From NCBI RefSeq assembly GCF_048403405.1, contig NZ_CP183129.1: DNA of 64,000 nucleotides; one strand, given 5' to 3'. Every line of letters begins with the position of its first letter. Position 1 is the stretch's first letter. This document shows, piece by piece, positions 49,741 through 50,104 of the stretch. A model generated the notes under the pieces. That model was given only the letters and a program-made list of their open reading frames with translations. It was not told the origin of the DNA and ran no database searches. Position numbers and translations under genes: made by a program. The DNA comes from Escherichia coli. Its GTDB lineage: Bacteria > Pseudomonadota > Gammaproteobacteria > Enterobacterales > Enterobacteriaceae.

Positions 49741-49846
49741 GCCCTTCTCCCTTTGTAACAACCTGTCATCGACAGCAACATTCATGATGGGCTGACTATG
49801 CGTCATCAGGAGATGGCTTAAATCCTCCACCCCCTGGCTTTTTTAT

Positions 49847-49871
49847 GGGGGAGGAGGCGGGAGGATGAGAA
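49847..49871. promoter_or_regulatory. cluster of MalT-box-like hexamers (GGAGGA / GGATGA)
   Basis: GGGGGAGGAGGCGGGAGGATGAGA upstream of malK; further GGAGGA copies at 49823..49828 (reverse strand) and 50019..50024. Confidence 0.45.
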
Positions 49872-49975
49872 CGCGGCTTCTGTGAACTAAACCGAGGTCA
49901 TGTAAGGAATTTCGTGATGTTGCTTGCAAAAATCGTGGCGATTTTATGTGCGCATCTCCACATTACCGCCAATTC

Positions 49976-49991
49976 TGTAACAGAGATCACA
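49976..49991. promoter_or_regulatory. CRP-like site in the malK-malE divergent regulatory region
   Basis: TGTAACAGAGATCACA matches TGTGA-N6-TCACA at 9 of 10 positions. Confidence 0.5.
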
Positions 49992-50104
49992 CAAAGCAAC
50001 GGTGGGGCGTAGGGGCAAGGAGGATGGAAAGAGGTTGCCGTATAAAGAAACTAGAGTCCGTTTAGGTGTTTTCACGAGCACTTCACCAACAAGGACCATA
50101 GATT

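Follow-up and report, generated by a model that had tools for sequence, protein, structure and literature searches.

An Escherichia coli malK-malE intergenic region as a natural allele of the malEp-malKp divergent control region, with MalT boxes and CRP-like sites in an array of fixed spacing

The DNA boxes of the activator MalT follow the decamer consensus GGGGA(T/G)GAGG. At the MalT-dependent promoters malPp, malSp and malZp, and at pulAp-malXp of Klebsiella, a GGA(G/T)GA box is located near −37.5 and is accompanied by upstream MalT boxes arranged as direct repeats; none of these is known to need CRP bound within the promoter. The malEp-malKp control region of E. coli K-12 is among the best-studied bacterial cases of two activators cooperating via a higher-order DNA-protein complex. 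A stereospecific nucleoprotein complex at malEp and malKp is mentioned in PMC3161199, and PMC7408454, referring to Richet and Sogaard-Andersen 1994, states that bending induced by CRP changes the position at which MalT binds, leading to malK transcription. In Vibrio, the promoter of malK is overlapped by a MalT box, and MalT is required for induction by maltose (PMC8265627, which also cites Vidal-Ingigliardi et al. 1991 by title). The long leader of Vibrio malK yields the small RNA Vsr217 (PMC8265627), whereas the leader predicted here for E. coli malK is only ∼48 nt long.

The region analysed here is part of a stretch of 64,000 nucleotides of E. coli DNA (assembly GCF_048403405.1, contig NZ_CP183129.1), referred to as the window. 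It is bounded by two divergent genes:

48625..49740, minus strand: malK coding sequence, its ATG being the reverse complement of 49738-49740; 371/371 residues identical to K-12 MalK
50105..51295, plus strand: malE coding sequence, its ATG at 50105; 395/396 residues identical to K-12 MalE

The initial annotation had placed a divergent regulatory region in the 364-bp gap between malK and malE. These bounds (49741-50104) are exact, and both genes were confirmed by annotation and translation. malK is the first gene of malK-lamB-malM and malE the first gene of malEFG, and the order malM-lamB-malK divergent from malE-malF-malG is also found in the RefSeq annotation of K-12 MG1655 and of strain CP033635, the intergenic region of which is 100% identical to that of the window. 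When the translations were compared with K-12, identity was complete for MalF (514/514 residues) and incomplete by one residue each for MalG (295/296), LamB (445/446) and MalM (305/306), so that identity to K-12 amounts to 99.7-100% for each of the six flanking mal proteins. Alignment of the gap with the malE-malK gap of K-12 MG1655, a check already proposed by the initial annotation, was ungapped and gave 362 identical positions of 364. The flanking operons are shared with K-12 malEp-malKp, as are the MalT boxes, the CRP sites and the −10 hexamers, and only two single-base differences separate the two regions. Of 5426 complete E. coli genomes, 5412 contain the intergenic region once, and in 5385 of these it is at least 99% identical to that of the window. 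Judged by its sequence, the region is orthologous to the malEp-malKp control region that has been characterised by experiment in K-12, and because of this near-identity it is to be regarded as ordinary and well understood: the control region is already known, the version in the window being an ordinary natural allele. What its dissection yields is a clean list of annotated parts with their window coordinates.

Candidate MalT sites were scored by the number of matches, out of 10, to the decamer consensus given above. They occupy both ends of the central array:

49821-30, minus strand: MalT site 3 (malK-proximal), register 1, GTGGAGGATT, 7/10, with a GGAGGA core
49824-33, minus strand: MalT site 3, register 2, GGGGTGGAGG, 9/10
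49839..49844, no strand: T-tract, spacer between oppositely oriented MalT sites
49848-57, plus strand: MalT site 4, register 1, GGGGAGGAGG, 10/10
49851-60, plus strand: MalT site 4, register 2, GAGGAGGCGG, 8/10
49858-67, plus strand: MalT site 5, register 1, CGGGAGGATG, 8/10
49861-70, plus strand: MalT site 5, register 2, GAGGATGAGA, 8/10
50004..50013, plus strand: MalT site 2 (malE-distal), GGGGCGTAGG, 8/10
50017..50026, plus strand: MalT site 1 (malE-proximal), AAGGAGGATG

The decamer scan thus found all three malK-proximal sites in two overlapping registers, offset by 3 bp. Sites 4 and 5 (49848..49870) form a direct repeat with a distance of 10 bp. The hexamer GGA(G/T)GA (GGAKGA) occurs once on the minus strand (49823-28) and four times on the plus strand (49850-55, 49860-65, 49863-68 and 50019-24), which is clearly more than the 0.26 occurrences expected when the remainder of the window is taken as a basis (Poisson P = 7.6e-6). 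Wherever a 364-bp segment of the 64-kb window contains more than two such hexamers, it overlaps this cluster. Site 2 lacks a GGAKGA core, and it is presumably a MalT site on the grounds of its similarity to the decamer and of the literature. The T-tract, of which positions 49839-43 are at least 95% identical among 52 species, may contribute DNA curvature or spacing.

Two promoters and their leaders, facing outward, were placed on the basis of conserved −10 hexamers, with the starts set 7 nt downstream of these; all start positions are therefore predictions:

49795..49800, minus strand: malKp −10 hexamer CATAGT (weak), six consecutive positions with a mean identity of 0.99 in 52 species
50047..50052, plus strand: malEp −10 hexamer GAAACT (weak), in which A.ACT (50048, 50050-52) is at least 95% conserved
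49741..49788, minus strand: predicted malK 5′ leader (∼48 nt), start derived from the −10 hexamer; Shine-Dalgarno sequence GGGAGAAGG
50059..50104, plus strand: predicted malE 5′ leader (∼46 nt), start placed by means of the −10 hexamer together with a conserved CG (50059-60)

A TATAAA at 50041-46 was rejected as the malE −10 element; it is less conserved than GAAACT and would put the MalT box at −31.5. No sigma-70 consensus promoter was detected within 49650-50200, nor a −35 consensus at malKp, as expected for promoters that depend wholly on activators; the lack of a −35 element is common to these two promoters and other MalT-dependent promoters. The predicted starts, ∼49788 for malK and ∼50059 for malE, are 271 bp apart, and the distance between the malE and malK starts is reportedly also 271 bp in Raibaud et al. 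1989. The decamers with GGAGGA cores centred at 49825.5 and 50021.5 each lie at −37.5 from the respective predicted start; a MalT box at −37.5 is said to be the rule for MalT-dependent promoters in Vidal-Ingigliardi et al. 1991. The start-site table of Kim 2012 contains no entries for malK or malE, and the paper on MalH provides no start-site information. Within the predicted leaders, a small hairpin CUGUC-GAU-GACAG (49765-49777, minus strand; −4.8 kcal/mol) of moderate conservation was observed on the malK side, and the fold of the malE leader is a hairpin of 8 bp (−6.1 kcal/mol). No RNA family was matched when 44000-56000 was scanned with Rfam.

Between the two MalT clusters, three adjacent CRP-like sites were found:

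49913..49928, no strand: CRP site a, CGTGATGTTGCTTGCA, 3 mismatches to the core consensus; left half CGTGA 100% conserved, right half 0.71
49947..49962, no strand: CRP site b, TGTGCGCATCTCCACA, 2 mismatches; left half 100% conserved, right half 0.70, spacer unconserved
49976..49991, no strand: CRP site c, TGTAACAGAGATCACA, 1 mismatch from TGTGA-N6-TCACA; right half 100% conserved, left half 0.87

Conservation refers to 52 species, in which all three sites consist of conserved half-sites around variable spacers. Their centres (49920.5, 49954.5 and 49983.5) are separated by 34 and 29 bp. Three adjacent CRP sites are reportedly the subject of Vidal-Ingigliardi and Raibaud 1991, as far as its title goes. 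The number of CRP consensus matches in the region, of which sites a and b are weak ones, is not enriched (3 versus 1.2 expected). Since a lone CRP match is not above chance, the significance of TGTAACAGAGATCACA was taken from its conservation and from ChIP-seq: in ETEC H10407, a CRP peak between malE and malK carries exactly the 16-mer of site c (PMC4287617). A full-text literature search with four CRP-like sequences found no paper. The fourth of these, TGTGAACTAAACCGAGGTCA (49881-49900), was rejected as a further conserved element on account of 4 mismatches when spaced canonically and a mean identity of only 0.35 across species; it starts with a perfect CRP half-site, TGTGA (49881-85), yet conservation there is among the lowest in the region. 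Older compilations of CRP sites reportedly include TGTGAACTAAACCGAGGTCA. The arrangement of three CRP sites between two MalT clusters, serving two divergent promoters, distinguishes the window region from other MalT-dependent promoters. The initial annotation had thus correctly recognized several GGAGGA/GGATGA hexamers in both orientations and one near-consensus CRP site, which is site c, but it undercounted the CRP sites by naming only this one, and its inventory of MalT boxes missed the overlapping registers of the malK-proximal sites as well as site 2.

To what extent these motifs are maintained was assessed in other species. A scan for MalE in species-representative genomes identified 80 loci across Enterobacterales, 78 of which have malK divergently upstream. 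For a footprint alignment, 52 Enterobacteriaceae species were used, with intergenic regions between 56 and 94% identical to that of the window overall. Between the predicted starts, motif positions had a mean identity of 0.93, compared with 0.53 elsewhere (Mann-Whitney P = 4e-30). All five GGAKGA hexamers were retained in 52/52 species, that is, GGAGGA of site 3 (block 49821..49833, mean identity 0.97), the three hexamers of sites 4 and 5 (mean identity of the block also 0.97) and GGAGGA of site 1; for site 2, mean identity was 0.95. Conservation at or near 95% was seen in the following blocks:

49821-49832, minus strand: TCCTCCACCC, MalT site
49846-49869, plus strand: GGGGGAGGAGGCGGGAGGATGAG, MalT sites
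49912-17 with 49926-30: half-sites of CRP site a
49943-53 with 49959-63: half-sites of CRP site b
49973-79 with 49985-91: half-sites of CRP site c
50005-50012: GGGCGTAG, MalT site 2
50019-50026: GGAGGATG, MalT site 1
49795-49800, 49839-49843 and 50048-50052: malKp −10 hexamer, T-tract and malEp −10 hexamer

The block spanning both MalT registers is nearly invariant (at least 95% in 52 species). The spacing of the array was scanned in 79 sequences from Enterobacterales, including Hafnia, Edwardsiella, Yersinia, Serratia, Photorhabdus, Providencia, Pantoea and Mixta. The distance from the hexamer of site 3 to that of site 1 was 195-196 bp in 76/79 sequences; the overlapping pair of site 5, GGAGGATGA, was present in 77/79, and the best match to CRP site c was found at an offset of 152-153, also in 77/79. 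In contrast, the start codons were located at variable distances from the array, between 60 and 1055 bp on the malK side and between 73 and 254 bp on the malE side. A core of fixed geometry with free flanks is what is predicted for a stereospecific nucleoprotein complex. The reading of the initial annotation, a region consistent with the nucleoprotein-complex architecture, is supported, as the motifs it named are the most conserved bases in 52 species and their positions fit the published layout as far as checked.

Three other explanations were considered. The hexamers and the CRP-like site could be chance matches in purine-rich intergenic DNA, without any regulatory role. Over the whole window, neither motif is indeed enriched (50 GGAKGA hexamers versus 47.8 expected; 20 CRP-like matches with up to 2 mismatches versus 26 expected). 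However, the local excess of hexamers, their retention in every species despite diverged spacers and the spacing fixed to within ∼1 bp exclude this explanation for all practical purposes, and the CRP ChIP-seq peak at site c argues against it as well. GGAGGA also resembles a ribosome-binding site, and the GGAGG-rich blocks might accordingly be Shine-Dalgarno sequences or belong to unannotated coding sequence, for which there are three candidates, namely an N-terminal extension of malK to 49830 (401 aa, starting with GTG), an ORF of 65 aa at 50002-50199 and a mini-ORF, ATGAGAACGCGGCTTCTGTGA, at 49866-86. The extension was dropped, as tblastn matches of the MalK start in 78 species begin at residue 1 of the protein initiated at ATG-49740, and the MalK of RefSeq has 371 aa. 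The region of the mini-ORF (49870-49900) is among the least conserved (identity ∼0.35), and conservation of the gap as a whole is block-wise, with unconserved spacers and no three-base periodicity, all of which makes a translational role of the GGAGG-rich blocks very improbable.

A different matter is whether a genuine mal control region might be regulated differently in this strain owing to its two differences from K-12. Both are located within the 200-bp array: position 49873, just past MalT site 5, is G in the window and A in K-12, and position 49998, between CRP site c and MalT site 2, is A in the window and G in K-12. Both positions are outside every conserved block, however, and identity between species is low (∼0.5 at 49873 and ∼0.3 at 49998). 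Moreover, 57-mers with the window allele are found unchanged in 1927 of 5410 (49873) and 2930 of 5411 (49998) E. coli genomes, and both alleles are therefore common natural variants. An effect on regulation is thus very unlikely, and the two polymorphisms, considering where they fall, are most likely neutral.

The reading of the region as the E. coli malEp-malKp divergent control region, in which one MalT/CRP nucleoprotein complex would activate both promoters, is preferred with a probability of about 97%, and no observation contradicts it. The analysis shows the orthology to K-12, where the motifs lie, and that they are enriched, conserved and rigidly spaced. With respect to mechanism, two weak sigma-70 promoters without −35 elements would face outward from an array of ∼200 bp, which would consist of three MalT sites on the malKp side, three central CRP sites and two MalT sites on the malEp side. 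The GGA(G/T)GA boxes would be bound by MalT oligomers activated by maltotriose and ATP, and the DNA in the centre would be bound and bent by cAMP-CRP; together, MalT and CRP would form a single nucleoprotein complex, leading to activation of both promoters. According to the literature, bending by CRP would move MalT at malKp from a non-productive to a productive register, 3 bp away. For this region, the statements on protein binding, on where transcription starts and on repositioning are adopted from the literature or inferred. The two MalT registers offset by 3 bp are, as far as can be read from the DNA, the sequence basis of this repositioning mechanism.

The array as a whole, with both MalT registers and all three CRP sites, keeps its spacing to within ∼1 bp in 76 of the 79 sequences, from genera that include Escherichia, Hafnia, Yersinia, Serratia, Photorhabdus and Pantoea. 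On this basis, it is somewhat favoured that the repositioning of MalT by CRP described in E. coli is an ancient constraint throughout the order and not peculiar to K-12. If true, such a constraint would extend the known biology of the system, without describing a new one. On the malE side, the malE-proximal MalT box (50022-50027) is GGAGGATGG in E. coli, which was retained in 29 of the 52 Enterobacteriaceae species. Many species other than Escherichia have GGAGGATGA as the malE-proximal box, that is, two hexamers overlapping 3 bp apart, like site 5 of malK. From these overlapping hexamers, it follows that a dual register may exist at malEp, too, in species carrying GGAGGATGA at this place. In Serratia grimesii, an ORF of 350 aa (locus L057, 152-1204, minus strand) was observed between the MalT/CRP array and malK; its N-terminus resembles, by eye, proteins of the alpha-amylase family, and similar spacing was seen in the loci L058, L059, L062 and L063. 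The malK-side promoter in Serratia probably drives an extra gene first. The malK leaders of Yersinia are 340-420 bp long.

Some features of the neighbourhood were noted as well. Only 93 nt (53899-53991), ending in the terminator GGCGCTCCACGGAGCGCCTTTTT, separate the stop of malG (53898) from that of psiE (53992). We take this segment to correspond, by position only, to the 3′ terminus of malG, the site of the small RNA MalH in K-12. K-12 has xylE downstream of malG, located together with ∼1.8 kb between malG and psiE, whereas xylE is absent from this place in the window. Of 5426 complete E. coli genomes, 1786 have the contiguous malG-psiE junction, which makes the missing xylE a common polymorphism. 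An ungapped comparison over 16 kb indicated an indel relative to CP033635 somewhere in the flanks. At 44333-45913 (minus strand), the window contains an intact ORF of 526 aa, which is annotated as "SopA family protein" in CP033635 and the K-12 counterpart of which is the pseudogene yjbI.
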